A stretch of 64,000 bases of DNA. Origin: a virus. This document shows, in pieces, positions 12,869 to 43,328 of this stretch; position 1 is the stretch's first letter; every line of letters starts with the position of its first letter. The DNA is taken from the IMG/VR virus record IMGVR_UViG_3300045988_153198; one strand, 5' to 3'. The position numbers and the translations under genes are program-made. The notes below the pieces were generated by a model, which made no database searches, was not told the DNA's origin, and saw only the letters and a program-made list of their open reading frames with translations.

Positions 12869-13731
12869 ATGTATTCTATCGAAGTAAAAGATATGGATTT
12901 AGGTCAAATCGCAGAATCAGGACAGTGTTTTAGAATGAATTATATTGGTCAAGGAGCATACTCAATAGTAGCTTTTGGGCGATATGTTGAAGTATCACAA
13001 CATCTAAGCACTGTCATTTTTTCGTGTGATAAAGAAGAGTATGAGGAGATTTGGAAAGAGTATTTTGATATAGATACTGATTATTCAAAAATAAAAGAGG
13101 ATGCAAAATCAGATGAATTTTTGTCTGCTGCAATTCAATATGGTAGTGGTATCCGAATTTTGAAACAGGATTTATGGGAAATGCTTATAACCTTTATTAT
13201 CTCACAAAGAAAAAGTATTCCTAACATTAAAAAATGTGTTGAAACTTTATGTTATAGATATGGGAATCCGATTTCTGGCGAAGGTTTTACTGATAAACCT
13301 ATAAATGAATATGCTTTTCCTACAGCAGAAAGACTTAGCACCGTATCAATAGAGGAGCTGAGAGATTGTGGATTGGGATATAGAGATGTTTATGTGTCTG
13401 AAGCTGCTAAATGGTTTGTAAAAAATATGAGTCTTACAAATGATAAGAAATATGCATATAAAAACGATATTACATATTTGTCTGTATATCCTTATGCAAA
13501 AACCATTTTTACACAGATTACAGGTGTTGGAAACAAGATTGTGAACTGTGTATGCTTATTTGCTTTGCATCAATTAGAAGCTTGTCCTATTGACACACAT
13601 ATGCAACAAATAATTGACAATGTATATAAAGGGATTATGCCTGAATGGATGATTAGTGATAAAGCTGGAATCCTTCAACAGTATGCCTTTTATTATAAGA
13701 AAAATAATTTTATAAAGAAAGCGAGGTATGT

Positions 13732-13735
<4 letters not shown>
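12869..13735 (+). CDS. ogg: 8-oxoguanine DNA glycosylase-like HhH-GPD glycosylase
   Basis: N-terminal SGQCFRMN (Ogg-type GQxFRW). HhH-GPD block ITGVGNKIVNCVCLFAL...PIDTH. Start ATG 12869 follows AAGGAGG. Confidence 0.7.
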
Positions 13736-16334
<2,599 letters not shown>

Positions 16335-30439: not shown

Positions 30440-30960
30440 TTGTATTAGTCGGTGAAAGTGCCAGTGGTAAATCAAGTATTGAAAAAAATTTGGTTGACAA
30501 TTATGGTTATAAAAAAATTGTATCATACACTACAAGACAACCAAGACAGGGAGAAGTTGATGGTATTGACTATCATTATATTTCTGAATCTCAATTTTCA
30601 AATCTGCAAAAAGAAGAGTTTTTTGCAGAGATTGGGGAATACAATGGATGGCATTATGGTACTGCAAAAAATGATTGCACATCTGATAAAGTGGCAGTAG
30701 TAACACCACATGGATTACGTCAACTTAAAAAGATTCCCAATCTGGATATTCGTGCTTTTTACATCAATGTACCTCGTAGAGATAGACTGATTAAAATTCT
30801 TCAAAGAGGTGATAATATTGAAGAAGCATATCGCAGAAGTTTGTCAGATGTTGGTCAGTTTGATGGTATTGCCGATGAGGTAGATTACATTATTGACAAT
30901 AAAGCTTATAGTAAAACTATTGAGCAAATGTCAAAAATTGTACTATCTCATCTATCATAA
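30436..30960 (+). CDS. Guanylate-kinase-like (d)NMP kinase
   Basis: P-loop GESASGKSS and guanylate-kinase block [20 protein letters not shown]. Confidence 0.7.
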
Positions 30961-30966
30961 AACTAC

Positions 30967-30995
30967 TTGACAACTACAAGAGATGACCTTATAAT
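30967..30995 (+). promoter_or_regulatory. Consensus sigma-70-type promoter
   Basis: TTGACA (30967-30972), exactly 17 nt, TATAAT (30990-30995). Shares ATAAAACTACTTGACA with the promoter at 12753-12769. Confidence 0.65.
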
Positions 30996-31002
30996 ATAAA
31001 AC

Positions 31003-31278
31003 AACAAGGTTATCTCCATGTCACAGGGCAAACCCGATTATCCAGTTTTAGGGCAAAAAAGCTATCCAGTTTGATTGTTTAACTAGCTTCGCTAGATGCT
31101 CAACTAGATAGAAAGTTTCAGCCAGTGAAAAATCTAAATTCACGTAAAAAAGCGTGAAAGTGTCCAAGCATAAGAATTGACCTTGTTGGTCTGATAGAGA
31201 TAATACTTCAAGAATAACTTCTCAATAAAGAGATAACTTCTCATAGTATATGCTCATCAGACTTACAAGGTCTTTTTT
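31003..31278 (+). ncRNA. Candidate ~275-nt non-coding transcript
   Basis: Bounded by the consensus promoter and a long stem: GACCTTGT-TG-GTCTGAT (31179-31195) pairs with ATCAGAC-TT-ACAAGGTC (31256-31272), followed by TTTTTT (31273-31278). The longest ORF is 18 codons with no RBS. Internal hairpins are CTAGC-ttc-GCTAG and CACG-N8-CGTG. Confidence 0.4.
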
Positions 31279-31363
31279 GTTACATCAAATTATATTTGTT
31301 ACACAATTTGCTTGTACGGTCAAAAGAATGACCTTGTAACCTATAATGAATTTCTTACAACCA

Positions 31364-31405
31364 ACAAAAAATGGGAACATCCTACTGCGAATAGGAAGCT
31401 CCCAT
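31364..31405 (-). terminator. Terminator of the first mini-cassette
   Basis: Hairpin ATGGGA..TCCTA / TAGGA..TCCCAT (31371-31405), followed on the minus strand by TTTTTGT. Confidence 0.45.
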
Positions 31406-31418
31406 CATTGAAAAAGTA

Positions 31419-31634
31419 TTATTTTATCCTGTTAATAAGTAAAGGATTATACATCAAAATTTCATTAAGAGTTATGGCTTTGGAAATTTCCATATACTCA
31501 AAAAATGAAACAGGACAAAATTCAATAACCTTACCTGATTGACAGGTAATAGTTAGAGAGTTGCTTTCCCAGTTTATTGCCTGAATTAGTGTTGGGTTCG
31601 GGCTTGTGTGAACTGGACTTGTAAGAATATTCAT
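31419..31634 (-). CDS. Small protein, paralogue of 32076-32255 (KTSC-like pattern)
   Basis: RBS AAAGAGGTGA. Has its own promoter and terminator. Shares the pattern I.W....N.L.......G.V......VSF..Y with the second cassette. Confidence 0.55.
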   Translation of the reverse strand: MNILTSPVHTSPNPTLIQAINWESNSLTITCQSGKVIEFCPVSFFEYMEISKAITLNEILMYNPLLINRIK

Positions 31635-31714
31635 AATATCACCTCTTTCCTCTGCACAGTATTAATCTGTTATATAAGTGTTGCAGCCTGTTATTGGTAC
31701 TAACAGACCACAAT

Positions 31715-31729
31715 ATTATTATACGAGAA
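31715..31729 (-). promoter_or_regulatory. Promoter core TTCTCGTATAATAAT (minus strand)
   Basis: Plus strand reads ATTATTATACGAGAA. About 75 nt upstream of the ATG at 31634. Confidence 0.55.
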
Positions 31730-31783
31730 TAGTAGAAAAAAGAGGAACTGATAAATGGTTACAGGGTCTTTTTTGTTAATATA

Positions 31784-31887
31784 GGCTTAAAACAGGCTAT
31801 TATAGGCTATTACAGGCTTAAAAGGGCTATTGGCAGCAGTTTTTGATAATTGGAGAAATACCTTGTTTTAAGGGCTTTCAAGGGTCT
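31784..31887. repeat. Helically phased repeat array (AGGCTTAAAA / AGGCTATTA units)
   Basis: GGCT cores at 31784, 31795, 31805, 31815 and 31825 (spacing 11, 10, 10, 10). Two degenerate copies, AAGGGCTTTC and AAGGGTCTTG, lie at 31870-31889. Confidence 0.6.
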
Positions 31888-31896
31888 TGATTTACA

Positions 31897-31916
31897 CATA
31901 AAATACGAATTTTATG
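31897..31916. promoter_or_regulatory. AT-rich palindrome CATAAAAT-N4-ATTTTATG, copy c
   Basis: Perfect 8-bp inverted repeat with the same flanks as copy b (CACATAAAAT...ATTTTATGAGG). Lies 10 nt from the transposon-end-like repeats. Confidence 0.4.
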
Positions 31917-31926
31917 AGGAACAAAA

Positions 31927-31987
31927 ACTCTGATAAGCACATTCTGATAAAGAATAACCTCTGATAATTTGATAATGTGACCGTCTA
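31927..31987 (-). mobile_element. Tn7-like transposon end copy (left-end-like), facing away from the tns genes
   Basis: Three inverted copies of the end motif start at 31927, 31941 and 31958 (CTCTGATAAG, TTCTGATAAA, CCTCTGATAA). The reverse complement of 31958-31987, TAGACGGTCACATTATCAAATTATCAGAGG, matches 32581-32610 at 27/30. Confidence 0.6.
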
Positions 31988-32019
31988 ATATAGATACGCA
32001 ACTATAACAGACACGCTAC

Positions 32020-32053
32020 AAAAAGAAAAGACTACTCTAGTGCAAGTAGAGTA
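32020..32053 (-). terminator. Terminator of the second mini-cassette
   Basis: Stem TACTCTA (32033-32039) / TAGAGTA (32047-32053), followed on the minus strand by CTTTTCTTTTT. Confidence 0.5.
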
Positions 32054-32075
32054 ACCCCTTCAAAGATTAAAAACA

Positions 32076-32255
32076 TTACAGAGAAACAGCACGTTTCTCA
32101 ATAAGCTTTAACAATTTTGGATTATCTTTTACAAGTAAATAATTTGCAAAGGATACACCAGTAATCTTAGAAACATGACCATTAGAAGATGCAACTTCTA
32201 AGGTATTATCAGGCTTCCAAGTAATGTTGGTAGACTTATTGAAATTAATATCCAT
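32076..32255 (-). CDS. Small protein, paralogue of 31419-31634
   Basis: Start set to ATG 32255 (MDINFNKS...) behind GGGAGGTG; the track start at 32264 is a GTG. Has its own promoter, a ~130-nt leader and a terminator. Confidence 0.55.
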   Translation of the reverse strand: MDINFNKSTNITWKPDNTLEVASSNGHVSKITGVSFANYLLVKDNPKLLKLIEKRAVSL

Positions 32256-32407
32256 AACGAACACCTCCCTTCTGTATAGGGTTGTATAGTAAAGCTCTGG
32301 TGGGAGAGCTGAACTAACTTAAACAGAACTAACCTAGACAGAACTTTCTGTAAGCAACTCTTAGGCAGAGGAAATTTGATGGTAGGACATCAAAAAATCC
32401 TCCACTT

Positions 32408-32422
32408 ATTATTATACGAGAA
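32408..32422 (-). promoter_or_regulatory. Promoter core TTCTCGTATAATAAT (minus strand)
   Basis: Plus strand reads ATTATTATACGAGAA, preceded by CCACTT, as at the other two copies. Confidence 0.55.
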
Positions 32423-32580
32423 ATCGTATGAAAGTAGGAAGTAATTAGCCTAATAGGAACTGCTTACAGGTTGAGAATACCTAAGACTGGACTAGGGGAG
32501 GGTGGTGGGAGAGGTAAGTAGTGTTAGCGTAAATCTGAAAGCGAACAGCTTTAAGAAATCAATCTGAAAGCGTAAATCGG

Positions 32581-32698
32581 TAGACAGTCATATTATCAAG
32601 TTATCAGAGGAGTAGGTTATCAGAGGTGTAACTTATCAGAGGGATACTGATGTAATTCATCAGAGGTGCAACTTGTCAGAAGTGCAACTTATCAGAGG
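32581..32698 (+). mobile_element. Tn7-like transposon end adjacent to tnsA (right-end-like)
   Basis: 30-nt tip TAGACAGTCATATTATCAAGTTATCAGAGG, then head-to-tail ~16-nt units (consensus TGCAACTTATCAGAGG) ending at 32610, 32626, 32642, 32666, 32682 and 32698. Confidence 0.7.
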
Positions 32699-32844
32699 TA
32701 AGGATATAGAGAATTATCTCCAAAATTCAAAAGTGGATACGACAGTTGATAGGGTAAGGTCTAAAAGTAAAGAGGATAGAACTTTTGCCTTAAAACTGAA
32801 TAATCACTTTTGCCCTATGACATAGAGTATTTGCTATTATCCAT

Positions 32845-33026
32845 TTTTGGGAAACTCATAAATCAAGACAAAACCTCTGAAAACCCAGTAAAATCAATAC
32901 TTTTAAGCAATTCCCCATTTTCCCAGAAATAATGTTTTTGGGAAGAAAAATCCCCAAAAATACGTTTTTGGGAGATTCAATCTGTTTTTGGGAACAATTT
33001 TGGGAAGTGTTACCCCATTCTGGGAA
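32845..33026 (+). promoter_or_regulatory. TTTTGGGAA repeat array upstream of tnsA
   Basis: Direct copies at 32845, 32936, 32966, 32986, 32998 and 33018 (the last is TTCTGGGAA). Inverted copies at 32920-32929 and 32951-32960. Ends 26 nt before the tnsA ATG. Confidence 0.5.
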
Positions 33027-33051
33027 TTGCCAAATATCAGGAGGTGCTGCT

Positions 33052-33396
33052 ATGCGTAAGAAAGGTTACAAGGGAAGATGTGAAAAGAAGAATTTAAGTA
33101 AAAGTCAGGAAGTATGCAGAACATACGATGCAATACAATCCAACTATGCAGATATTCTTCAGAATGACAACAACATACAGGAAATCAGATGCAATGTGTT
33201 GTTAGACGGTTTATCAGAAGGAGCTTATACCTCAGACTTTGTTTGTGTCAAATCAGATGGAGATTTGATGGTCAGGGAATGTGTTTTTAGAAAGTTTCTC
33301 ACAAAGCCTATGACAGTAAAGCTTCTGGATGCTTCAAGAGATTACTGGTTAAATCATGGTGTATCAGATTGGGGGATGGTCATTGATGAAGAATAG
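33052..33396 (+). CDS. tnsA: TnsA-like endonuclease, N-terminal-domain-only (114 aa)
   Basis: ATG 33052 follows CAGGAGGTG. AYTSDFVCV...GDLMVRECVFRK resembles the TnsA YTPDF...EVK core. The canonical Lys position is not obviously conserved. Confidence 0.55.
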   Translation: MRKKGYKGRCEKKNLSKSQEVCRTYDAIQSNYADILQNDNNIQEIRCNVLLDGLSEGAYTSDFVCVKSDGDLMVRECVFRKFLTKPMTVKLLDASRDYWLNHGVSDWGMVIDEE

Positions 33397-35233
33397 ATTA
33401 CAAAAGAAAATTACAAAGAATCAGCTATTACAGAATGATACTCAGCTTATAAGGGTTTTGGATATAGAAGCCTACAGAGTATTTGTCATTGACTGTATCA
33501 AAAAAACTATGCCAGTCTGGACAGATGCAGAATCATTAAAAGATTATCTTCCATGTTCTGAAGATACATTACAGGAAATCACAGATACTATTCTGATTGA
33601 CCTTGATAATTTAGATTCAGAAGGAAGAAAGACAGCATATGAAAGATATACAATGATTGCCCCTTTGCTGCCTTTTGTATCAGACCAGAAAAAACGAAAA
33701 GAACTGATAAACAGCCTTGCAAATATAAACTCAGTCAGCAAACAGACAATCAGATACTACCTCTGCTTATATCTGGTTTATCAGAATATATCTATACTTA
33801 TACGCAAGCAGAGTGTGAAAGAAAGCGTTTTATCTCAGGATGAGAAGAATATGAGGTGGGCTTTAAACAAGTTCTTTTATACCAAGCACAAGAACAGTTT
33901 GCCTGTGGCATATACGCTATTACTGAAAGAAAAATATTGTGATTCACTAGGAAATCTGCTGCCTGAATATCCTTCATTTTATCAGTTCCGATACTTCTAC
34001 AGAAGAACAAAAAAGATGCAGACCTATTATATTTCAAGAGATGGGTTGAAGGACTACCAAAAAAATAACAGACCGCTGCTAGGGGATGGAATACAAGAAT
34101 ATGCTTCGTCTGTAGGTATGGGAATGTTAGATGCGACTGTGTGTGATATTTACCTTATCAATGAAGCTGGTAATTTGGTAGGCAGACCGATATTGACAGC
34201 TTGCATAGATGCCTATAGTTCTTTATGTTGTGGTTATTCTCTGTCATGGGAAGGCGGTGTGTATTCTCTCAGAGGATTGATGTTAAATATCATTTCAGAT
34301 AAACAGAAGTGGTGTAGTCAATACGGTATCAGTATTAAGAAATCACAGTGGGATGCAGACAAGCTCCCAGCAATCTTTGTAACTGATATGGGTTCTGAAT
34401 ATAAATCTGAGAACTTTGAACAGATAACAGAACTAGGAGTAACTGTGGTAAATCTTCCATCTTACAGACCCGAACTGAAAGGAGCTGTGGAGAAATTTTT
34501 TGATTTAGTACAGAATACCTACAAGCCATATTTGAAGGGAAAAGGTGTAATAGAGCCAGATTATCAAGAGAGAGGTTCGCATGATTACAGGAAGGATGCT
34601 TGCCTTACTATGGTAGATTTTGAAAAGGTCATTCTCCGATGTATCATTTATTATAACTCACAGAGGATTATAGAAAATTTCCCATATACTGAAGGAATGA
34701 TACAGAATCAGATTCAGCCATTTGCAAGCAATATCTGGGAATGGGGAAAGACACAGATAGGGGCTAATTTGATTACAGTTGATAAAGAACAGATTGTATT
34801 GACCCTTCTTCCAAGGATTACAGGTAAGTTCTCCAGATTTGGACTCAGAGTAAACAAAATGCGGTATAAGCATGAGAATTTCACAGAAAAATATCTTGCT
34901 GGTGGAGAGGTAACAGTTGCCTACAATCCAGATGATGTATCAGCGGTATGGTTGATTGACAATGGTTCTTATATTCGATTTGACTTAATAGAAAGCCGAT
35001 ATAAGGGCAAGGAATTATCAGATGTAGAAATAATGCAGAAAGGTCAGAAAGAGCTTGTAAAGGCTGCTACAGCAGATAATATACAGGCACAGATTAACCT
35101 TGCACAGTCTATAGAAATCATTGCTGCATCTGTAAATAATCCTGATAAGGTCAATATAAAATCTATCAGGAATACCAGACAGAGAGAACAGACAAAGAAT
35201 CATATTGATTATATTAGGGGGATTGAAGCATGA
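33386..35233 (+). CDS. tnsB: TnsB/TniA-type DDE transposase
   Basis: DDE context MLDATVCDIY, FVTDMGSEYKS and PELKGAVEKFF, with a Mu-transposase-like C-terminal region. ATG 33386 overlaps the tnsA stop. Confidence 0.8.
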   Translation: MKNRLQKKITKNQLLQNDTQLIRVLDIEAYRVFVIDCIKKTMPVWTDAESLKDYLPCSEDTLQEITDTILIDLDNLDSEGRKTAYERYTMIAPLLPFVSDQKKRKELINSLANINSVSKQTIRYYLCLYLVYQNISILIRKQSVKESVLSQDEKNMRWALNKFFYTKHKNSLPVAYTLLLKEKYCDSLGNLLPEYPSFYQFRYFYRRTKKMQTYYISRDGLKDYQKNNRPLLGDGIQEYASSVGMGMLDATVCDIYLINEAGNLVGRPILTACIDAYSSLCCGYSLSWEGGVYSLRGLMLNIISDKQKWCSQYGISIKKSQWDADKLPAIFVTDMGSEYKSENFEQITELGVTVVNLPSYRPELKGAVEKFFDLVQNTYKPYLKGKGVIEPDYQERGSHDYRKDACLTMVDFEKVILRCIIYYNSQRIIENFPYTEGMIQNQIQPFASNIWEWGKTQIGANLITVDKEQIVLTLLPRITGKFSRFGLRVNKMRYKHENFTEKYLAGGEVTVAYNPDDVSAVWLIDNGSYIRFDLIESRYKGKELSDVEIMQKGQKELVKAATADNIQAQINLAQSIEIIAASVNNPDKVNIKSIRNTRQREQTKNHIDYIRGIEA

Positions 35234-36474
35234 TTGATTTTACAACGAAACTTCCAGAAATGAAATCAGGGAATGAACTTATATGTGCATTATCTATCAT
35301 TCCTGAATATGATGAAACCATATGCCAGCAGAACCAAGCAGTTAGATTAATGGCATTATCAGACCTGTACCAGATATATGTACCATCTCAGATGAGTATT
35401 GAAATCTATAATAAATTGTATCTTGCCTTGCTTCGTTCTATGCAAAAGAAAGGCTCTCAGATGGCTATAAAACAAAGATATGAGAACTATAAGGCAATGC
35501 AGCAGCAATCTTATAGCGGTATTCTGGGCGGTTCTGATTCATTCACAATTATCGGTACTTCAGGAATAGGTAAATCCTCTGCCATCAGCAGAGCTATATC
35601 CTTGATTACTGAAAATCGTATCATAGAAACAGACAAGCCATATACAAAGATTATCCCATGCCTGATTGTACAGTGTCCGTTTGATTCTTCAGTAAAAGGC
35701 TTGCTATTGGAAATCCTCAGAAAAGTAGATGAAGAACTGGGAACAGACCATTATATTCATGCAGTAAAATCCAGAGCTTCTACAACAGATATGCTTATAG
35801 GTGCGGTCAGCTCTATTGCATTAAATAATATTGGTATGCTGGTAGTAGATGAGATACAGAATGTTGTCAACTCCAAGAATGGAAAGAGCCTGATAGGTGC
35901 ATTGACTCAACTTATCAATAATTCGGGTATCTCTATTTGCATGGTGGGTACTCCTGAAAGTACAGTGTTTTTTGAACAGGCTATGCAGCTTGCAAGGCGG
36001 TCTGTAGGACTACAATATACAACTATGAAATATGATGAGTATTTCCAGAGCTTCTGCAAAGTGATTTTTAAATATCAATTTTTAAAAAATCATACAGAGA
36101 TAACCGCTGCTATTACAGAATGGCTATATGAACATTCTGCTGGTGTGGTTTCTGTTGTGGTATCTCTGATTCATGATGCACAGGAAATAGCAATTCTTAC
36201 AGGGAAAGAGGTTTTAAATCTGGATACTCTGAATGAAGCATACCAACAGAGATTAACATTGCTTCATGGATATATACAGCCCTCTGTGATTCAGAATAAA
36301 CCGACAACCAAAAAGAAAAAGACTGCTGCCAGTGTCAAAAAGAATCAGATACAGAGCCAGCCCAAACAGGAAAGATATTCTATCACTGAAATTGCAGAAA
36401 GAGCCAAAGCTGAGAATTTGGATGTAGTAGAATTGTTGAAAGAAGTTTATACCGTTATTGAGGTGGCAATATGA
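35230..36474 (+). CDS. tnsC: TnsC/TniB-type AAA+ ATPase
   Basis: Walker A GTSGIGKSS and Walker B LVVDEIQN. Start overlaps the tnsB stop (ATGA). Confidence 0.75.
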   Translation: MIDFTTKLPEMKSGNELICALSIIPEYDETICQQNQAVRLMALSDLYQIYVPSQMSIEIYNKLYLALLRSMQKKGSQMAIKQRYENYKAMQQQSYSGILGGSDSFTIIGTSGIGKSSAISRAISLITENRIIETDKPYTKIIPCLIVQCPFDSSVKGLLLEILRKVDEELGTDHYIHAVKSRASTTDMLIGAVSSIALNNIGMLVVDEIQNVVNSKNGKSLIGALTQLINNSGISICMVGTPESTVFFEQAMQLARRSVGLQYTTMKYDEYFQSFCKVIFKYQFLKNHTEITAAITEWLYEHSAGVVSVVVSLIHDAQEIAILTGKEVLNLDTLNEAYQQRLTLLHGYIQPSVIQNKPTTKKKKTAASVKKNQIQSQPKQERYSITEIAERAKAENLDVVELLKEVYTVIEVAI

Positions 36475-37823
36475 TAACATACCTTCCTGAAATATATCCA
36501 GATGAGCTTGTATATAGTTGGTTTTGTCGGTATGCAATCCATTCAGGATATACGTCACATAAACGAGTATTACAGGAGTTGTACTGTAAAAAATCAGATA
36601 CACCGATTAAAGAATTTATTGGTAATCTCAATCCTGAAGCAAGAGAATGTATTGATAAAATGTATCCGTTGAGGGATTTAGTATTAAATCACACCATGTA
36701 TCCTCAGTATGCCAGATTCATTCCATTGGAACAAAAGAAGGATGCTTTATATAAATTGTGTTATGAGAATTGTGATGCACACCATTTATTTGCAGTTCTT
36801 CCAAGGTGTGAGAAAGAACGCTACTTGAAATATTGTCCTGTATGTGCAAGTGAGGACAGACAGAGATATGGGGAAACATATTGGCACAGAAAACACCAAA
36901 TAAGGAATATGGGGATTTGTCCAAAACATAAGTGTAAGCTTCAGGACTCCAGCGTTTCAGCTAAAAGTATGAATATATATAATTTCTCTGCTGCTGAGAT
37001 TGCTATTCCTGATTCGGAAGAATATATACCTGTTGATAATCCTTTACAGATAAGATTTGCAGAGTACACAGAACAGGTTTTTGATACTCCTGTAGATTTT
37101 GAAAAGGATGTTCCACTCAGCACTATGTTGTATTATGCCATGAAGAATACAAAATATATGAAATCAACAGGAAGATGTCGATACATGACAAAGTTTGTTT
37201 CTGACATGACACGCTTTTATGAACAAATCGAACTGAATGAGATTGCCAGTATCGGAAGGATTCAAAGGACTTTGTTATCTGGGGAAAGATACGATTTTTC
37301 TCTTACCTGTCAGATTGGTTTCTTTCTGAATATGACATCTGAAGATTTGACTGCTCCTCAGTTATCGGAAGAACAGATAAAGATAGAAGAGGAAAGCCAT
37401 TATATCAAGGGAAAGACTACACCAGATTGGGAAGAATATGACAACAAAATGTCTCTTATCTTGGAACAGGTTGCAGAAGATATTTATAGCGGTGCTGCTG
37501 ATAGCATGGGAAAGCCTGAAAAGGTAACTGAGAAATTTATATGTAGGATACTGGGAATAAAGCAGCACCAACTTGAGAATATGCCTAAAAGCAGAGCTGT
37601 ATTAGAGAGATATTCAGAATCATATCCTGAATCATGGGCTAGAAAATTGGTATGGGCTTATGAGTGGCTTGAGAACAATGAGGAAGATGTATTTTACTGG
37701 AAACATCTCAGGAAACTCACAGGAGTTAAGAAAGAGCATTTTGATGAGATTATTCCATACCTTAAAAAGTATGCAGATGAGTATGAAGTGAAAAATATCA
37801 TAAAAATAGTTATGGGAGAGTAA
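36471..37823 (+). CDS. tniQ: TniQ-family target-selection protein
   Basis: N-terminal YPDELVYSWFCRY and zinc-ribbon CPVCASEDRQRYGETYWHRKHQIRNMGICPKHKCKL are typical of TniQ/TnsD N-terminal domains. Start overlaps the tnsC stop. Confidence 0.75.
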   Translation: MITYLPEIYPDELVYSWFCRYAIHSGYTSHKRVLQELYCKKSDTPIKEFIGNLNPEARECIDKMYPLRDLVLNHTMYPQYARFIPLEQKKDALYKLCYENCDAHHLFAVLPRCEKERYLKYCPVCASEDRQRYGETYWHRKHQIRNMGICPKHKCKLQDSSVSAKSMNIYNFSAAEIAIPDSEEYIPVDNPLQIRFAEYTEQVFDTPVDFEKDVPLSTMLYYAMKNTKYMKSTGRCRYMTKFVSDMTRFYEQIELNEIASIGRIQRTLLSGERYDFSLTCQIGFFLNMTSEDLTAPQLSEEQIKIEEESHYIKGKTTPDWEEYDNKMSLILEQVAEDIYSGAADSMGKPEKVTEKFICRILGIKQHQLENMPKSRAVLERYSESYPESWARKLVWAYEWLENNEEDVFYWKHLRKLTGVKKEHFDEIIPYLKKYADEYEVKNIIKIVMGE

Positions 37824-37895
37824 TCTTAATTCTTCTTGTTTTAATAAAGCTATGATATACTTATAAGCATACGAATTAAAACAAAGGAGAGTACC

Positions 37896-38597
37896 ATGAG
37901 TTTAAAAAATAAAGAAAAGATTTCGATAATAGTTCCTATTATTGTATGTATATTGTGTTTATGTTCATGTTCTAAGAAAACACCTGATGAAAAATTGACT
38001 GATAGTTTCTTAGAGTACAGTTTGGGGAAAACTGATGGTAAATTTAATAGAGTATTTACAACATCCAACGGAACAGAAATGGTAGTGTCTGAATTACAAA
38101 AAGAAGATGCAACTTCTCCAAAAGTGATTTTATCTGTTGATATTGGAAACACCGATTTTAAAAATCAAATATATCAGTGGATAACATCTCCTGTCAATGT
38201 GCGTATGGATGATTACAGAGAATGTGCGGAAATGGTCATAAAATATGCCAAAAATGAAAACTGGGATAATGACTATTATTTATATGTCAATACCAGAAAT
38301 ATTTATGGAAGTTGTGATATTGTCTATGACTATGAGAAAGATATGATTTATATACCAAATGCAGAAAATACCTATAAAGAAATGTATGAGCAGTTTGGTA
38401 CATTCTATACGAAAGATATTACTGAAGCAGACAACGGTTCTGATTTCATAATTAACAATAATTTAGGATATTGGCAACATAACGAATTGGAAACAAAAGA
38501 TGCAACCTCATATAGCATATTTCTTCATGATGGGAAATTTTCAGAATATGAAAAAGATAAGTCTACTGTATATAGTAGAGATGATGTAAGCGAATAA
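37896..38597 (+). CDS. Putative lipoprotein
   Basis: Signal peptide with lipobox-like LCLCSC|SKK. RBS AAAGGAGAG. Possible extended -10 (TGATATACT, 37853-37861). Confidence 0.55.
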   Translation: MSLKNKEKISIIVPIIVCILCLCSCSKKTPDEKLTDSFLEYSLGKTDGKFNRVFTTSNGTEMVVSELQKEDATSPKVILSVDIGNTDFKNQIYQWITSPVNVRMDDYRECAEMVIKYAKNENWDNDYYLYVNTRNIYGSCDIVYDYEKDMIYIPNAENTYKEMYEQFGTFYTKDITEADNGSDFIINNNLGYWQHNELETKDATSYSIFLHDGKFSEYEKDKSTVYSRDDVSE

Positions 38598-38612
38598 AAA
38601 ATCGTAAAAAAT

Positions 38613-38639
38613 AAGGGTGTAGCTTAATGCTACACCCTT
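38613..38639. terminator. Bidirectional terminator between convergent genes
   Basis: AAGGGTGTAGC (38613-38623) / GCTACACCCTT (38629-38639) with loop TTAAT. The minus-strand side has a T-rich tract. Confidence 0.65.
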
Positions 38640-38642
38640 AAA

Positions 38643-38948
38643 TTATTCTTTCTTGCTTTCACAAAATTTATGATGGTCAATTACCAAATCTATAGCATAC
38701 ACCTTCTTATTGGTGTTTTTATCCACATATGAACTTTTCTTGATTTTACCATTTACGAGTATTTTCATACCTTTATGCAAATATTTTCTTGCAAATTCAG
38801 CTTCTTTTCCAAAAGCAACACAATCAAGGAAATCAACTTTAGATTCCTTACCAAAAGGATTATCTACAGCCAAACAATATCTAACTACATTTTCACTTTT
38901 TGATTCTGGTTCATCTGTTAATCTCCCAGCTAATACAAACATATTCAT
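38643..38948 (-). CDS. ssb: Single-stranded DNA-binding protein, OB-fold only (no acidic tail)
   Basis: FVLAGRLTDEPE, YCLAV, DFLDCVAFGKEAEFARKYLHKGMKILVNGKI and SSYVDK align with bacterial SSB core blocks. Confidence 0.7.
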   Translation of the reverse strand: MNMFVLAGRLTDEPESKSENVVRYCLAVDNPFGKESKVDFLDCVAFGKEAEFARKYLHKGMKILVNGKIKKSSYVDKNTNKKVYAIDLVIDHHKFCESKKE

Positions 38949-39369: not shown

Positions 39370-39750
39370 TTATGCAAATACCACATCTGCAATTTCCATA
39401 ATGCAACCTTTAAGCATCTCATTATCACTTGATAAGGAACGATTTTCATTTAAAAGATATTCAATCTTTTCCTTGTCACTTAATTCTACTGGGAGTTCTG
39501 CATCTTTTTTTGCATACTCAATCCAAGTATCGAGATTGCTTTTAATTTCTTCGAGTAAACCAGTACGATATTTTAACTCAAAACGATATGAGTCATATTC
39601 GTAATATTCGGTTGTAGTTTCTTCATCACCCATAGACATTGTTTTTGTTAATGTATCTGAGATATTTGTATTGATAATAACGTCACACAGTCCAGCACTT
39701 GTTCTTTCAATAATGACTGATTCTGGTCTTTGATTGCTTTCTGCTCTCAT
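39370..39750 (-). CDS. Acidic hypothetical phage protein
   Basis: ATG 39750 follows AAGGAGG. The start and RBS lie inside the last 44 nt of the RT gene. Confidence 0.5.
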   Translation of the reverse strand: MRAESNQRPESVIIERTSAGLCDVIINTNISDTLTKTMSMGDEETTTEYYEYDSYRFELKYRTGLLEEIKSNLDTWIEYAKKDAELPVELSDKEKIEYLLNENRSLSSDNEMLKGCIMEIADVVFA

Positions 39751-40849
39751 TTGCTACGACCTCCTTTAAAATTTTTATATTCACATTCTTTAGATATTTC
39801 ATATAAAAGAAATGTGAATCTGTATATTTAATAGTTCCTACATAAGAAAGACATCCAGCACATAAAGAAAAAGATAGCTTTTGGTGATTGGCTATCTTTT
39901 TGGATGCTTTATTATATTTTCTTCTAATTCGTAAAGAGGTTGCTCTACGAATTTCAATGTGGTCACGATAAAATTTATACCCCATAAAGTCAAGAAATCT
40001 TCCACGATGGATAGGTTTACCAACTTTTTGACTAGCCTTTTTATCAATATAGTCTAATCTAAATACTTGCCAGTTACTTTTGATTTCCAAACCAAGAGTA
40101 GCACAATATTTATCTAACTCACGTTTTACACGATGCAGTTCCTTTTTGTTTTTACCAAAAATACAACCATCATCCATATAAAAAATACAATACTTCACAC
40201 GAAGTTCTTCTTTTAAATAGTGACACACATAACTAATAACAAAATTACATAGCCATTGAGATGTAACACTACCAATAGGAAGCCCATCATCATAACTGTA
40301 AAGAATTGTTTCTGCTAACCATAATACCTTTTTGTTACGAATTTTTCTTTTCAATAAATCCATAACAATATCAGGCTTGATATGTTGATAGCATTTCTTA
40401 AAATCTATTTTCAGACAATACTTAGTATTTTTATGGTCAGTTTCCATCCATCTCTTTACAAATTTCCTTCCGTATGTACCACCACGATTAGGAATACTTG
40501 CACATTGATGAACATAAAATTGCTTCATAAAAATATCTTCGCAAGCCAATACAAAAATCCAATGATATATCTGAGATAACATACTTGTTGAAGCAATATC
40601 CCTTATCTTATGAGTAGATGTATCATATACTTGTGATACATGGTATTCATCAGGCTTTCGTTTTTCTAAAATTAAACTTCTTTGAATACGCTCTGCTAGA
40701 TAAGCAATTTTTATTTCAATAGTATCTCCCTTACACCAGTTTATTAAATTCTTTGTTTCTGCCCTATGCCACTTGCCTTCCAGAGCTTTATAAATAGCAG
40801 CAATTATGAAATTAATATCTGTAATATCTTTAGTCACATAAGATTTCAT
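39707..40849 (-). CDS. DGR reverse transcriptase
   Basis: RT motifs include LPIGSVTSQWLCNF (the DGR-type [I/L]GxxxSQ) and IFYMDDG (YxDD). Start set to the first ATG after the TR (40849, MKSYVTKD...). Confidence 0.85.
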   Translation of the reverse strand: MKSYVTKDITDINFIIAAIYKALEGKWHRAETKNLINWCKGDTIEIKIAYLAERIQRSLILEKRKPDEYHVSQVYDTSTHKIRDIASTSMLSQIYHWIFVLACEDIFMKQFYVHQCASIPNRGGTYGRKFVKRWMETDHKNTKYCLKIDFKKCYQHIKPDIVMDLLKRKIRNKKVLWLAETILYSYDDGLPIGSVTSQWLCNFVISYVCHYLKEELRVKYCIFYMDDGCIFGKNKKELHRVKRELDKYCATLGLEIKSNWQVFRLDYIDKKASQKVGKPIHRGRFLDFMGYKFYRDHIEIRRATSLRIRRKYNKASKKIANHQKLSFSLCAGCLSYVGTIKYTDSHFFYMKYLKNVNIKILKEVVANESRKQSKTRISHY

Positions 40850-41012
40850 TAAGTTCTTTCTTAATCTCAAAGATGTTTGAATAAAATAATATTCTACTAA
40901 CCTCTGCTGCACCGATGAATTTTTACCAAGCGGTATGGCAAGCCTACTCAATTTGAACTCCAAACTGGTAGGTAGATTGTGTATTAAGATTTTATGAAAA
41001 TTATTAAGAAGT

Positions 41013-41125
41013 GCGAGCAGCAATATTCCACCACGCATTACCGACATCGTTGTTGCAATTCCAATAGACAAGCCCATCGTTAGCACCGTTATTCAAATTA
41101 CCGCCAACGTACACGACACGCAGCC
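41013..41125 (-). repeat. DGR template repeat (TR)
   Basis: 113 bp, 98/113 identical to 41493-41605. In the target frame it encodes GGNLNNGANDGLVYWNCNNDVGNAWWNIAAR, with nine AAY codons. Confidence 0.9.
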
Positions 41126-41230
41126 ACCGCAATACACAAAATCCCGACAAATAAATTACCATCAATCATGTTTTTATAATTGAATCTAGTGCAATAATCA
41201 AGTTACTTTTTAATGTGTTCAAAAATAATA

Positions 41231-41290
41231 GGAGAGATGTTCGTCTTAGTACCGCCAACACTTTACTAATCCGTTTCACAACATCTCTCC
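41231..41290 (-). other. Structured element between VR and TR
   Basis: Perfect 11-bp stem GGAGAGATGTT / AACATCTCTCC with an inner 6-bp stem TTAGTA / TACTAA. The loop contains TACCGCCAAC, identical to TR positions 41100-41109. Followed on the minus strand by TATTATTTTT. Confidence 0.5.
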
Positions 41291-41445
41291 TAAATCTTCT
41301 AATCACCAAATTCAAAAACTTAAAATCCTTATTTTATCCTAGAGATTAATTTTCTCCTTTTCTATATTTTTTTGTAATTCAACTTCTTAATAAATTAACA
41401 TTGAATCTGCTATTTAGTATGATATTGTATCTGCTTTTAATAATA

Positions 41446-41466
41446 CTGGGGGTTGGTCACCCCCAG
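41446..41466 (-). other. GC-rich hairpin just downstream of VR (candidate DGR target-recognition hairpin)
   Basis: CTGGGGGT-TGGTC-ACCCCCAG, 9-29 nt past the fibre stop codon. It sits in an otherwise AT-rich spacer and has no counterpart next to the TR. Confidence 0.6.
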
Positions 41467-41474
41467 ACCCCCAC

Positions 41475-43328
41475 CTACGCAGTATAGGAAAGGCGAGCAG
41501 CAATAATCCACCCCGCACTACCGACAGCGCTGCTGCAATTCCAAAAGACAAACCCAGCGAGAGCACCGTTAGGCAAACCACCGCCAACGTACACGACACG
41601 CAGCCCTGTGTTCTTCCAGTAATAATCGCAGAAATACTGGTTGGACGCACCACCGACAACAATCGGCAAACGCACGTATGGATGCTCCGCATCCCATCCG
41701 AGTTCCTTCGTCCATCCTTCGGATGAACAATTGACATAGCCAATCTGTTCATAATCTGAAGTAATAGAATTTGCAAACTTAGTTGGGTCTTTGCACACAT
41801 ATGTCTGATAATCCTGAATTAACACATCAGCCATAATAGACCACTGATTACCCCACAAATCCTCAATGTATCTATAACGCATCTGATATTTACCAGAAGT
41901 ATTTGACACCGCACTACCAGAAGGAGTAATAACAGAATCAGACCCACCAGAGAACCAACAACGAGAAGAAATATAATTTCCAACTGCTACATTAACAGCA
42001 GCTCCATCAAATACAATTGCTTTATTAGAAGCATCATATGTTTCAATAGAGGTAATTCTTCTATTGTTTGCAATCTCAGAACCATTCTTTGTTGAACCAA
42101 TAACAATTGTTTGACCAACAACATAGTTAGCTGCAATATCATTAGCACAAATAAATTTGTTTCCATTTGTTGTAGCAACAGTAACGACATCATTTGCATT
42201 ATCATATCTCATATAAGCTGCACCATACATAACATCCTGAGAGTTACGTGTTGCAAATTCTACATAGAATAACAACTCATTAATCTGTCTATCTTTTGTT
42301 GTTTCGATATGATAATTCGTACCAAGCTTACTTCTAAGTAATGACTTATAACCATCATAAGAACGACTAAGCATAGTATTAATACCACTATATGATACTG
42401 GATTACCAGAAGCATCCAGACCAATTTTATAACATGGATAATAATAAGTATCCATTACAGAACCATCCAGATTAACAAATCTTTCAGGAATTTCATAACC
42501 ATCAAGGTGCTGGTCAGAAATCCAAATTTCATAGTATGTATCAGTAAATACATATTTGTAATAGAATAAATGTCTTTCTGCATATACATTTCCATTAGAA
42601 CCATCGACTGCAAAATTTGGCTCACCTTCTACAGCAGTAACAACAAAATTTTTTCCATCCCAATGTCCATTTACTCTACGAGATTTCCAAGGCATAAGAT
42701 AATCAAAATCATTATATGCATCTACTGTATCTGTACCTACATTTGCCACTAATCCAATAGCATCACCTAAACGCTCACCTTTTGGATTAGAACCAGCGGT
42801 ATAAAGTGGAAAACGTACACCCCATTCTTTTGGACGATTAGTGGACAACACTTTTAACATAGCTTCGATTTTATTTGAACTATATGTTGTGCCAGCACCA
42901 GCCTTACTATCATTAATTCCAATTTTTTCTGCCACAATAGCTTCCGCAGCAGCAGCAGCGTTATTTGCTCTCTCTGTAGCAGTAGTGGCATTACCACTTA
43001 AAATTTCTATTTTATTGGTAAAACCATCGACAATTCCTTTAGCTTTTTCATATTCTGCAATACATTTTGCTACTTCAGCTTTCGCCAAAGTTACCTGTTC
43101 TGTAGCAGTATTGATATTTGTCTGTGAACTTGTATTTAATTCTTCAATCTTCTTCAACTGAAATACATAGCCAAGATTCTTCCAAGGGGTAGAACCATCA
43201 CCTAATTTCATATTGATATAGCCATCTGTAGTACGCTCTAAAGCTGGTTCATTTAAAGCTAAGATTCTATTTGAAGATTCCCAGTTGGCAGTTGTATCAG
43301 TTTTCAACGTAATAGTTGATGTTGCCAT
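41475..43328 (-). CDS. Tail fibre / receptor-binding protein, DGR target
   Basis: Mtd_N-like N-terminus (TDTTANWESSNRILALNEPALE...KLGDGSTPWKNLGY). C-terminal lectin-like VR ...GGGLPNGALAGFVFWNCSSAVGSAGWIIAARLSYTA. Confidence 0.85.
   Translation of the reverse strand: MATSTITLKTDTTANWESSNRILALNEPALERTTDGYINMKLGDGSTPWKNLGYVFQLKKIEELNTSSQTNINTATEQVTLAKAEVAKCIAEYEKAKGIVDGFTNKIEILSGNATTATERANNAAAAAEAIVAEKIGINDSKAGAGTTYSSNKIEAMLKVLSTNRPKEWGVRFPLYTAGSNPKGERLGDAIGLVANVGTDTVDAYNDFDYLMPWKSRRVNGHWDGKNFVVTAVEGEPNFAVDGSNGNVYAERHLFYYKYVFTDTYYEIWISDQHLDGYEIPERFVNLDGSVMDTYYYPCYKIGLDASGNPVSYSGINTMLSRSYDGYKSLLRSKLGTNYHIETTKDRQINELLFYVEFATRNSQDVMYGAAYMRYDNANDVVTVATTNGNKFICANDIAANYVVGQTIVIGSTKNGSEIANNRRITSIETYDASNKAIVFDGAAVNVAVGNYISSRCWFSGGSDSVITPSGSAVSNTSGKYQMRYRYIEDLWGNQWSIMADVLIQDYQTYVCKDPTKFANSITSDYEQIGYVNCSSEGWTKELGWDAEHPYVRLPIVVGGASNQYFCDYYWKNTGLRVVYVGGGLPNGALAGFVFWNCSSAVGSAGWIIAARLSYTA
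41493..41605 (-). repeat. DGR variable repeat (VR)
   Basis: C-terminal 38 codons of the fibre, ending 5 codons before the stop. 15 differences from the TR, 13 of them at TR adenines on the coding strand. Confidence 0.9.

Follow-up and report, generated by a model that had tools for sequence, protein, structure and literature searches.

The window analyzed here is a 64,000-nucleotide stretch of DNA from a virus (IMG/VR record IMGVR_UViG_3300045988_153198). It contains an operon of four open reading frames for a Tn7-like transposition system, all on the plus strand. The stop codon of each gene overlaps the start of the next, and the translational coupling proposed in an earlier note on this DNA was thus confirmed at every junction. 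The genes of the operon and those that follow it are:

33052–33396, plus strand: tnsA-like gene, 114 aa, with the TnsA N-terminal fold, no C-terminal domain, and a catalytic set that is not kept
33356–35233, plus strand: tnsB, DDE transposase (the start used by the gene callers, 33386, gives 615 aa)
35230–36474, plus strand: tnsC/tniB, AAA+ regulator, assigned from Pfam matches
36471–37823, plus strand: tniQ, 450 aa, predicted target selector of the ppdK type from Pfam and TniQ identities
37896–38597: lipoprotein gene
38643–38948: SSB gene

The family assignments made in the earlier note were upheld by profile and structure searches. Pfam matches were obtained for TnsB (Mu-transpos_C, PF09299, 1.4e-8), TnsC/TniB (TniB, 6.8e-14; AAA_22, 1.5e-12), and TniQ (TniQ, 2.1e-18). 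TnsB matched the Tn7 TnsB structure (PDB 7pik) at 3e-41 and is closest to Tn7 TnsB among the solved transposases; its DDE residues (D259, D344, and E379) are invariant across 5 relatives. The 114-aa TnsA-like protein had no Pfam match of its own, and the TnsA-like N-terminal domain (PF08722) was matched through family members only (18 of 28; best E 2.6e-6). The AlphaFold model of the protein gave TnsA (1t0f and 1f1z) as the best matches, with a probability of 1.00 and a TM score of 0.63–0.64.

The TnsA-like fold is thus retained, but the nuclease function that the earlier note attached to it is doubtful. When the 114-aa protein was mapped onto Tn7 TnsA, D62 corresponded to D114, E76 to Q130, V78 to K132, and S95 to E149. 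The catalytic Lys132 of TnsA is therefore replaced by Val and Glu149 by Ser, as checked against the Tn7 TnsA sequence, and the position of E63 appears to be occupied by Gln29, judged by eye. The catalytic set of TnsA (E63, D114, and K132) is not reproduced, and the C-terminal domain is missing. The endonuclease activity of this protein (TnsA′) appears to have been lost, as judged from an alignment of low hhalign probability (2.4%) together with the fold similarity. Lysine migration is known among PD-(D/E)xK enzymes.

A motif, TTATCAGAGG, is repeated upstream of the operon in 16-nt units. With at most one mismatch, 15 matches were found in the window versus 5.4 expected, and none of 100 shuffles reached 15. 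Five of these matches are clustered at 32601–32698 with a spacing of 16 nt. The array was previously taken to be a multi-site transposon end. The repeats are real, but they do not mark an end of the tns system. An inverted partner that matches the 30-mer of the array at 27 of 30 bases lies upstream, at 31958–31987, and a search of the window gave no matching copy beyond tniQ. The array is also missing from the sibling operon copies L014 and L001, whose homology to the window does not begin until 32773. It belongs to a cassette with the following parts:

31927–32698: array-bearing cassette, in which inverted arrays of the TTATCAGAGG unit (31927–31987 and 32581–32698) flank 593 bp
32076–32264, minus strand: ORF of 62 aa

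This cassette of ~0.8 kb is missing from L014 and was also found within units that occur without tns genes (L130 and L138, below). In phage strains L104–L106, these inverted 30-mers are spaced ~1.7 kb apart.

By sequence, the true ends of the tns system are two 49-nt arms with TGT and ACA tips, which lie in the following arrangement:

30967–30995, plus strand: perfect-consensus promoter, TTGACA-17 nt-TATAAT, 23 nt before the TGT tip and reading into the unit
31019–31067, plus strand: arm A3, 49 nt, 5′-TGT tip at 31019, two GGGCAA sites ~23 nt apart, "TTATCC" type
31068–32773: spacer, the cargo of the putative mini-transposon, hypervariable in phage strains
31213–31841, minus strand: cassette with an ORF of 71 aa (31419–31634, minus strand)
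32774–32822, minus strand: arm A2, 49 nt, ACA-3′ tip at 32822, two sites, "TTATTC" type
32823–33051, plus strand: operon leader with GTTTTTGGGAA repeats and palindromes, with arm-adjacent counterparts in relatives

The segment at 31019–31067 is the inverted partner of 32783–32823 (41 nt, 85% identity, E 0.001), and the two GGGCAA sites in each arm are putative TnsB sites. The arms enclose a gene-poor unit of 1.8 kb (31019–32822). A transposon with the operon between its two ends, as had been supposed, was not found: both tips (31019 and 32822) are upstream of the operon, which starts 230 nt outside the ACA tip, so that the genes-between-ends arrangement of Tn7-like elements is absent. No further arm of the TGT/ACA kind was found elsewhere in the window, the ~26 kb on the right of tniQ included. 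An arm pair was located 500–750 nt upstream of tnsB in 34 genome loci; in these, the outer arm begins precisely with TGT, next to unrelated DNA. The promoter scored 12/12 in a promoter scan, and L044, L036, L018, and L005 have the same motif on the inner side of the left-end arm, 22–24 nt away from the tip. By this comparison the left arm of the window is of the inner left-end type. Since the promoter precedes the TGT tip by 23 nt, as in these four relatives, both arms have the phage DNA on their cargo or backbone side. Leader-type repeats (GTTTTTGGG or GTTTTTAGGAA) follow the arm in every relative examined, and the leader repeats and palindromes probably represent promoter and operator sites.

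The boundaries of the unit are also apparent in other assemblies. The homology of the siblings L001, L014, and L015 to the window begins at 32773, the edge of A2. Four phage contigs stop 55, 30, 29, and 29 nt after the TGT tip, and ten contigs begin 55–141 nt before the ACA tip, near common assembler k-mer sizes. From contig ends at such distances, the assembly graphs fork at both tips. The distance from the guanylate kinase gene to the tnsA-like gene varies from 1.5 to 4.2 kb across phage strains. Parts of the spacer are 86% identical to the spacer of L014, a chromosomal sibling, and 95–98% identical to solo units at ppdK. The cassette with the 71-aa ORF, which has no Pfam match, is missing from strain L112 and from L014; L104 and some solo units, L123 among them, carry it at 94–98% identity.

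The module is phage-borne, as the earlier note had stated. At least 20 contigs (up to 123–139 kb) that come from different samples represent the gut phage of ~130 kb and share one gene order. In every phage contig seen, this order is guanylate kinase, promoter, A3, spacer, A2, tns, and SSB, and all strains seen retain the four operon ORFs in intact, coupled form. The operon lies at the junction of the plus-strand early genes and the minus-strand late genes, beside the DGR, in agreement with the earlier map. The phage has genes of its own for a DNA polymerase III alpha subunit, a helicase, a ligase, and NrdD, a replication gene set that fits a lytic lifestyle. The 64-kb window yielded no resolvase, integrase, or repressor. 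The expectation that a CRISPR/Cas partner is absent was correct: there are no cas domains in the genes neighboring the operon and no CRISPR-like array within 28–44 kb, and the cas genes with an array or guide beside tns that define a CRISPR-associated transposon are not present. Contigs of the L005 type (182–217 kb) share synteny with the window at dUTPase, ThyA, and DHFR, at ~50–60% amino acid identity. The TnsB proteins are 59% identical, similar to the divergence of the phage genes, and by this measure the association of tns with the phage is old.

The unit also occurs alone, without tns genes, in gut metagenomes, usually a few bases past the stop codon of ppdK. Perfect 5-bp duplications flank the solo units L138 (CATAT) and L144 (TGTTG), both at ppdK, as well as L120/L131 (TATAA), L121 (AAATT, twice), and L125 (GACAA). 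The sequences of these relatives, rather than the copy in the window itself, thus show that the unit is mobile by itself and makes 5-bp target duplications. The terminal 30 nt of A2 are identical to the ACA arms of L120/L131 and L125. In 13 metagenome loci, the 3′ end of ppdK is joined, at five or more different offsets, to an arm that is identical to A3 over 39 nt; none of the ppdK-arm loci continues into tns or phage genes. The spacers of the ppdK solo units match cassettes of the window at 95–98% identity. Solo units end exactly at TGT and ACA, and the tips in the window thus point at phage DNA.

Insertion in the relatives is specific for site and orientation. The tip is 5–18 nt past the stop codon of ppdK in 20 loci and 7–8 nt past the stop codon of guaA in 7 loci. 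By our own arithmetic, the tips at ppdK fall at a constant 25–27 nt beyond the conserved AAQAAI codons. The copy in the phage does not occupy a site of this kind. The TniQ of the window is 92% identical to that of L014, an element at ppdK, 52–58% identical to those of 16 other ppdK-site elements, and ~30% identical to those of guaA-site elements. TnsB and TnsC are ~63–68% identical to those of the window in both groups alike. The TniQ type co-varies with the ppdK or guaA site in 22 elements, and tniQ modules have been swapped in L018 and L002, which pair a window-like TnsB with a guaA-type TniQ. These comparisons show that the relatives insert at a short, fixed spacing past ppdK or guaA and that the TniQ type tracks the gene used. 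By homology, the TniQ of the window is predicted to recognize the 3′ end of ppdK. No description of ppdK or guaA as attachment genes was found in the literature searched.

Chromosomal relatives with tns genes have a copy of the unit on either side, the two in direct orientation, as in a cointegrate; this rests on three right-hand units (L044, L036/L027, and L018). In L044 the second unit lies 10 kb downstream in direct orientation, with A1 matching A3, A2 matching A4, and outer flanks of ATTTT and ATTTC. In L036 two units lie tip to tip, and the L018 contig spans A2 to A3. The promoter-A3 and A2-operon junctions are conserved family-wide. The close siblings L018, L014, and L015 encode a serine resolvase, and the Pfam annotation of the window's genes gave none; no res site was identified either. 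Catalytic mutants of tnsA are reported to transpose replicatively, and Tn7-like elements that lack tnsA typically to gain resolvases (Benler et al. 2021, PMC8649781). The sibling resolvases and these findings support a replicative pathway. The operon is 94% identical at the nucleotide level to those of L014 and L015 over exactly 32773–37810, which by sequence shows recent exchange with the chromosomal siblings. Since this homology ends at 37810, the lipoprotein and SSB genes are not shared with L014 and L015.

We propose, with a probability of about 0.5, that the locus is the donor configuration of a mini-transposon with its helper operon, for copy-in insertion at ppdK of the unit and possibly of the whole phage. 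It would belong to a Tn7-like family specific to Bacillota. Its first piece would be the non-autonomous mini-transposon at 31019–32822, with two putative TnsB sites in each arm, and its second the helper operon tnsA′-tnsB-tnsC-tniQ (33052–37823) immediately outside the ACA tip. The neighboring unit would be the substrate of TnsB, TnsC, and TniQ made by the phage, which would target it to the 3′ end of the host ppdK. Because TnsA′ has lost the catalytic Lys and Glu of TnsA, the 5′ strands would stay uncut and transposition would be copy-in (replicative). With a circular phage donor, the product would be a cointegrate of the order ppdK, unit, tns, phage, and unit; with a concatemer, an identical cointegrate would arise if A3 of one genome copy were paired with A2 of the next. 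The two unit copies would then recombine, freeing a phage circle with one unit and leaving a solo unit at ppdK. The question raised in the earlier note, whether the phage is a vehicle for the transposon, is thereby recast: the module is phage-borne, but the evidence suggests a role beyond that of a vehicle. The phage would be the donor backbone or cargo, and the part shown to be mobile is the small adjacent unit.

Some observations run against this model. The contigs include no integrated phage, and the ppdK-arm loci never reach tns or phage genes. Direct transposition of the unit alone would explain the solo units equally well. The replication gene set of lytic type and the lack of a resolvase, integrase, or repressor in the window also count against the model, as do the low alignment probability behind the loss of TnsA′ activity, the lysine migration known in such enzymes, and the small number of right-hand units. 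The spacer has grown to 1.7 kb via inserted cassettes, which might impair the ends.

It is possible, though on the unlikely side, that the phage never integrates and that its TnsA′, TnsB, TnsC, and TniQ only launch the 1.8-kb unit with its small cargo genes into the host ppdK during infection. Such an insertion could serve to mark or modify the host, to occupy the attachment site, or to confer target immunity of the Tn7 type. Solo units at ppdK that bear cassettes of the phage type and are flanked by perfect 5-bp duplications, a spacer that acts like variable cargo, replication genes like those of large lytic phages, and the absence of an integrated phage among the contigs seen are all in keeping with this. 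However, simple insertion needs 5′ strand cleavage, and TnsA′ is without the canonical Lys and Glu; the chromosomal tns relatives have the two-unit cointegrate architecture; and the family-wide conservation of the A2-operon and promoter-A3 junctions suggests that the unit is not excised from the donor. A passenger with no function for the phage, in which the segment from the promoter through A3, spacer, and A2 to tns was captured by recombination from an excised or circular element, is improbable. The 94% identity to L014/L015 indicates recent exchange, and the swapped tniQ modules of L018 and L002 are compatible with capture, but the four ORFs are intact and coupled in all strains seen, L005-type phages retain the arrangement, with a divergence like that of core genes, and both arms are identical to arms of transposed copies.

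The two remaining explanations are contradicted by the ends themselves. An ordinary Tn7-like transposon within the phage, with its left end at 32581–32698 and its right end beyond tniQ, is very improbable: the array is statistically real and does resemble a multi-site end, but its partner is upstream with no match to the right, sibling operon copies lack it, and the target duplications place the real ends at the TGT/ACA arms. Even less credible is a Mu-like transposable phage bounded as a whole by two ends, in which the DNA between the facing arms would be host flank or an assembly joint. The arms do lie side by side on a seemingly circular map, and many contigs break there. Nevertheless, the tips point away from the enclosed spacer into phage DNA, solo units end exactly at TGT/ACA, the spacer consists of conserved phage and element DNA rather than random host sequence, and TnsB is nearer to Tn7 TnsB than to other solved transposases.

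The proposed donor configuration resembles Tn7 and Tn7-like elements that use TnsD/TniQ and attTn7-type sites in its TnsB, TnsC, and TniQ homologues and TnsA-fold protein, in the 5′-TGT...ACA-3′ ends with repeated subterminal sites, in the 5-bp target duplication, and in the fixed orientation and distance past the 3′ end of a conserved gene. It differs in that the phage operon is outside the segment bounded by the ends, in the 114-aa TnsA′ without Lys132, Glu149, and the C-terminal domain, in the attachment genes ppdK and guaA, and in the two direct copies of a complete mini-element that flank the gene-bearing element. Replicative transposition and cointegrates are likewise expected for Tn5053/Tn402 (tniABQR) and type V-K CRISPR-associated transposons, Tn7-like elements that have no active TnsA, and the serine resolvase of L014, L015, and L018 is comparable to TniR of Tn5053. 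In contrast to these elements, a TnsA-fold protein is kept here, no resolvase was found in the window, and a long TniQ targets the 3′ end of a gene rather than res sites or the target of a guide RNA. In mechanism only, the arrangement is similar to the translocatable units and pseudo-compound transposons of IS26, where direct repeats of a mobile unit flank a passenger, the free form is a circle with one unit and the passenger, and the integrated form is a cointegrate. The enzymes are unrelated, and the IS26 transposase gene is inside the repeated unit, whereas here it is in the passenger. Transposable phages such as Mu also rely on a DDE transposase (MuA/TnsB family) and an AAA+ partner (MuB/TnsC family) and have replicative transposition in their pathway. 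The genome described here is not bounded by ends, which instead enclose the 1.8-kb unit; the phage has its own replisome; and TniQ gives site-specific targeting. As in mini-Tn7 vectors and MITE-like non-autonomous elements, two ends and their cargo would be mobilized by proteins encoded outside, but this system is natural and its helper operon is permanently adjacent in cis on the phage. No description of an operon outside its own ends on a phage was found in the literature searched.

If the proposed donor configuration is correct, the unit and the operon would stand in for the attP site and integrase gene of an ordinary temperate phage, and the phage may plant a 1.8-kb segment, perhaps itself, beside the host ppdK.

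The operon is composed of four plus-strand open reading frames that overlap stop to start throughout:

33052-33396, plus strand, tnsA-like ORF (114 aa), TnsA fold; its stop overlaps the next start
33356 or 33386 to 35233, plus strand, tnsB ORF, Mu-transpos_C (Pfam)
35230-36474, plus strand, tnsC/tniB ORF, TniB/AAA_22 (Pfam)
36471-37823, plus strand, tniQ ORF, TniQ (Pfam)

The earlier note had assigned these genes to the TnsA-like, TnsB, TnsC, and TniQ families, and this assignment was upheld by the Pfam matches, by the match of the second ORF to the solved Tn7 TnsB (7pik, 3e-41), and by the results for the relatives and the predicted fold of the 114-aa protein. The DDE residues of TnsB (D259, D344, and E379) are invariant among relatives; an exact look-up of the window TnsB returned no record. 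The 114-aa protein itself had no match in Pfam or NCBIfam, and single-sequence and profile searches against PDB sequences gave nothing meaningful. Only two approaches were informative, a Pfam scan across the family and the fold search. In the former, 18 of 28 diverse relatives matched PF08722 (TnsA-like N-terminal domain); in the latter, the AlphaFold model (pLDDT 75.5, pTM 0.71) had as its best structural matches the TnsA entries 1t0f and 1f1z (probability 1.00, TM 0.63-0.64).

The family profile of the 114-aa protein was aligned to Tn7 TnsA, using a sequence that is 100% identical to annotated plasmid records. The equivalent residues (114-aa protein and Tn7 TnsA, respectively) were determined to be D62 and D114, E76 and Q130, V78 and K132, and S95 and E149. 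Lys132 is thus replaced by Val78 and Glu149 by Ser95, and the catalytic lysine and one glutamate are lost. Judged from this alignment, the protein (TnsA') appears to be a TnsA fold that lacks the C-terminal domain as well as these two residues. The term nuclease domain used in the earlier note is therefore doubtful, and the substitutions suggest that TnsA' has lost its nuclease activity.

The left end of the transposon had previously been placed at the TTATCAGAGG array at 32581-32698. The array is not random: with at most one mismatch there are 15 matches to TTATCAGAGG in the window against 5.4 expected, a number reached in 0 of 100 shuffles, and five of these lie at 32601-32698 with a periodicity of 16 nt. 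The 30-nt "tip" of the array has an inverted copy (27 of 30 bases) upstream at 31958-31987 and no copy to the right of tniQ. The homology to the window of L001 (the same phage, 96% identity) and of L014 and L015 (chromosomal or non-phage copies of the operon, 94% identical in nucleotide sequence and with no difference in the 114-aa protein) begins only at 32773, and L014 lacks the array. The array is therefore not the end of the tns system; it is part of a cassette at approximately 31927-32698 within the variable region. With its partner upstream and no array in the sibling copies, its identification as a transposon end was ruled out. An exact search of IMG/VR with the 30-mer gave no match, and for 30800-33200 Rfam returned only chance-level matches.

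The ends are instead formed by a pair of arms. The segments 32783-32823 and 31018-31058 are inverted copies of each other (41 nt, 85% identity), and both arms read outward as TGTCA(C/T)AGGGCAAA...GGCAAA, a 5'-TGT tip with two sites about 23 nt apart. The left arm is denoted A3 (TGT tip at 31019) and the right arm A2 (ACA-3' tip at 32822). A scan limited to one genome per species found 165 relatives of TnsB in Bacillota, including Lachnospiraceae, Oscillospiraceae, Sporomusa, Pelosinus, and Megamonas. Eighty loci were fetched, and in 34 of these tnsB is preceded at 500-750 nt by the same arm pair, whose members are about 200 nt apart. The outer arm starts with TGT in every case and abuts unrelated DNA. 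Between the inner arm and the operon there is, without exception, a conserved leader with TGGTGATATT ahead of GTTTTTGGG repeats. The ends of this Tn7-like family fold back on themselves.

In the window, the leader (32823-33051) runs from the ACA tip to the tnsA-like gene and contains many GTTTTTGGGAA repeats and palindromes, such as CCCAAAAATACGTTTTTGGG. Equivalents of these repeats are conserved family-wide, and they are likely to be operator sites for autoregulation. The spacer of about 200 nt in chromosomal units (L044, ~9430-9450; L036) contains a strong bidirectional terminator hairpin. It also includes ATCACCATGGAGTAGGGGCA, a degenerate sequence that resembles a third arm and is possibly an additional site for TnsB or a remnant of nesting.

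Metagenomes were scanned with a pattern covering both arm types, and 39 loci were returned. In 13 of these, the 3' end of ppdK (the pyruvate phosphate dikinase gene) runs directly into an arm that matches the left arm of the window without mismatch over 39 nt, and the offset of the junction takes at least five values. The DNA inside the ppdK-joined copies is 95-98% identical to the spacer cassettes of the window, TTATCAGAGG arrays included. Several contigs have both arms, no tns genes, and perfect 5-bp duplications at the flanks:

Target duplications of solo units (units without tns genes)
L138: CATAT duplication, 3.9 kb, at ppdK
L120/L131: TATAA duplication, 2.86 kb
L121: AAATT duplication, two tandem units
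L144: TGTTG duplication, at ppdK
L125: GACAA duplication

The ACA arms of L120, L131, and L125 share 30 identical nt with the right arm of the window. From the solo copies, their duplications, and these arm identities, it follows that 31019-32822 is a competent-looking non-autonomous mini-transposon with the operon lying immediately beyond its ACA tip. This unit is mobile and generates target duplications of 5 bp. The target duplication anticipated in the earlier note was thus observed, around solo units; the layout it described, with the genes within the ends, was not, since the arms enclose 31019-32822. The target duplications show that the arm pair forms a transposon, and its reading as an invertible switch or a simple regulatory inverted repeat was therefore set aside. 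As a practical warning, the nearest repeat array can mislead the annotation of transposon ends; the comparison of sibling copies and the target duplications were decisive here.

In many left arms the first three bases are TAT and not TGT (L014, arm at 58-95; L120, L121, L125, L137, and L144). The target duplications at these arms are still perfect, and TAT tips are either tolerated or were mutated after insertion. Tandem arrays are found at attachment sites (L121, L136, L137, L036, and the right flank of L138/L130), in which units lie tip to tip, separated by 4-5 nt of target sequence. A degenerate old arm (TGTTAAGGGGCAAAGCG...) follows a solo unit at ppdK.

The TTATCAGAGG arrays (31927-31987 and 32581-32698) and the 30-nt inverted repeat are present in all of the phage strains examined (L104-L106 and L112) and in solo units. 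The two 30-mers are separated by 0.6 to 1.7 kb with differing small ORFs, and this segment may be a nested mobile cassette, a stretch able to invert, or a group of sites bound by proteins. The small ORFs of the unit, at 31419-31634 (minus strand, 71 aa) and 32076-32264 (minus strand, 62 aa), are paralogue-like; a 73-aa counterpart in the related phage contig L105 (12597-12818) has a weak match to the KTSC domain. These small ORFs are carried with the mini-transposon into host chromosomes.

The outer TGT tip was found 5-18 nt past the ppdK stop codon in 20 loci and 7-8 nt past the guaA stop codon in 7 loci. Arithmetic on the ppdK loci places the tip a constant 25-27 nt downstream of the conserved AAQAAI codons. 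TniQ is 52-92% identical to that of the window in ppdK-site elements and about 30% identical in guaA-site elements; TnsB and TnsC are equally distant from those of the window in both groups. The type of TniQ thus correlates with the attachment gene, and on the basis of this grouping the TniQ of the window is predicted to be a ppdK-type selector. The question raised earlier of what TniQ recognizes is answered to this extent, by homology. The literature searched contained no description of ppdK or guaA as attachment sites.

The target selector is also swapped as a module: L018 and L002, whose TnsB proteins are 94% and 84% identical to that of the window, respectively, have a TniQ of the guaA type that is only about 31% identical. 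In the contigs L005-L010 (182-217 kb), the tniQ ORF (13079-13891) encodes only 270 aa, of which only the first 162 align with the TniQ of the window; the C-terminal part may be lost or split, and targeting there may be different or defunct. Besides ppdK, three other recurrent flanks abut the arm: ...GAATGATCAGGACT (L124, L126, L140, and L152-155), ...GAGTTTGAATAACGGACA (L129, L134, and L141), and ...AATGAAAATTAATT (L127 and L150). These may be further attachment genes or the inner flanks of other elements.

The elements that carry tns genes have a two-unit architecture. In L044, from Anaerotruncus, ppdK is followed by a unit, the tns genes with 5 kb of cargo, and a second unit in direct orientation. 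The two spacers are co-oriented, arm A1 matches A3 and A2 matches A4, and the outer flanks are ATTTT and ATTTC. In L036 two elements meet tip to tip, the first through its right unit and the second through its left unit, and the contig of L018 spans A2 to A3. This layout is exactly that of a cointegrate from copy-in transposition of the unit out of a circular donor carrying the tns genes. A conserved promoter (TTGCAA or TTGACA, 17 nt, TATAAT) lies in the inner flank of the right-hand unit, 22-24 nt before the TGT tip. A perfect form of this promoter is found in the window at 30967-30995, and it is also present in L005-type contigs. The single unit of the phage is therefore the hybrid A3-spacer-A2 expected of a free, resolved donor, with the phage DNA in the place of backbone or cargo. 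At both tips, contigs from independent assemblies are interrupted: ten begin 55, 55, 76, 76, 77, 89, 100, 116, 118, and 141 nt before the ACA tip, and four phage contigs stop 55, 30, 29, and 29 nt past the TGT tip. Most of these distances are at or near common assembler k-mer sizes, and we infer that the assembly graph branches precisely at the tips, producing these contig ends.

The same order recurs in phage contigs of 123-139 kb sampled on several continents: guanylate kinase, promoter, A3, a spacer region (1.5-4.2 kb), A2, and tnsA'BCQ, followed by a variable small gene and then by SSB and a DGR on the other strand. In line with the replisome attributed to the phage in the earlier note, PolIII-alpha, a RecD-like helicase, and a ligase are encoded, together with NrdD/G, dUTPase, ThyA, and DHFR. 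The L005-type contigs (182-217 kb) retain the synteny of dUTPase, ThyA, and DHFR at about 50-60% amino-acid identity, and their TnsB is 59% identical; from this agreement, the association of operon and phage is old. The operon recombines with chromosomal copies, as seen in the tract of homology between the window and L014 (32773 to 37810) and in the exchanged tniQ modules of L018 and L002. No nucleotide match to the window was found among INPHARED annotated phages, and the only INPHARED protein matches were to TniA at about 21% identity, in Acinetobacter records. The DGR (39707-43328, minus strand), likewise noted earlier, adjoins the module; in it, a reverse transcriptase gene (RVT_1) lies next to a 617-aa target gene, followed by Mtd_N-type tail proteins. 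Breaks around 41.5 kb in several assemblies presumably fall at the template and variable repeats of the DGR.

Our tentative proposal, to which we assign a probability of roughly 0.3, is that large (~125-215 kb) phages of gut Clostridia use a Tn7-family integration module. TniQ would direct the module to the 3' end of ppdK, TnsB and TnsC with a dead TnsA would copy in the attP-like unit, and the phage would reside as a cointegrate between two units and be excised by their recombination. The phage TnsB, TnsC, and TniQ would act on the adjacent unit and, without a working TnsA, the reaction would be copy-in. Tn7 tnsA mutants are reported to transpose replicatively (copy-in), and a resolvase is typically acquired by Tn7-like elements that lack tnsA (PMC8649781). 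Serine resolvases are present in the siblings L014, L015, and L018. A circular donor would yield a cointegrate that integrates the phage, and recombination between the two units would reverse the integration and leave a solo unit. A concatemer would lead to an identical product if A3 of one genome copy paired with A2 of the following copy.

According to the main rival explanation, ppdK receives the unit alone and the phage itself does not integrate. Unit-only delivery and phage integration are both compatible with the available data; no host-flanked phage was found among the loci probed with guanylate kinase and the lipoprotein or among the ppdK-arm loci. A model in which the whole phage is a Mu-like transposon with facing ends was ruled out, both by the chromosomal outer arm, which starts with TGT against ppdK or guaA, and by the solo units, which end exactly at TGT and ACA with target duplications. 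The phage system differs from Mu in the orientation of the ends. It shares with the Tn7 family the proteins, the ends, the target duplication, and the logic of the attachment site, and is a member of that family, although it departs from two textbook features of Tn7, an active TnsA and genes between the ends. The cointegrates are a mechanistic likeness to Tn5053 and type V-K systems, and the one-repeat circle versus the integrated form between two direct copies resembles the translocatable units of IS26.

Tn7-like systems are known as chromosomal and plasmid transposons. The literature searched contained no description of a phage-borne Tn7-like operon of this kind, nor of this family from Clostridia and Negativicutes, with its ppdK and guaA sites and a short TnsA-like protein without the catalytic lysine. 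The family occurs as solo mini-elements and as cointegrate-shaped structures, and is a natural test case for the interplay of TnsA loss, cointegrates, and resolvases. As a possible tool for genome engineering of gut Firmicutes, it is compact and guided by protein, its mini-donor and helper operon can be separated, and it could accommodate very large passengers. The complete, conserved operon in large phages represents a new phage use of a Tn7-like system, with the phage as donor backbone, and links phage biology to integrase-free site-specific transposition. If the proposal is correct, this would be a natural system with transposase genes outside the transposon ends and a third kind of phage integration, beside integrases and Mu-type transposition.
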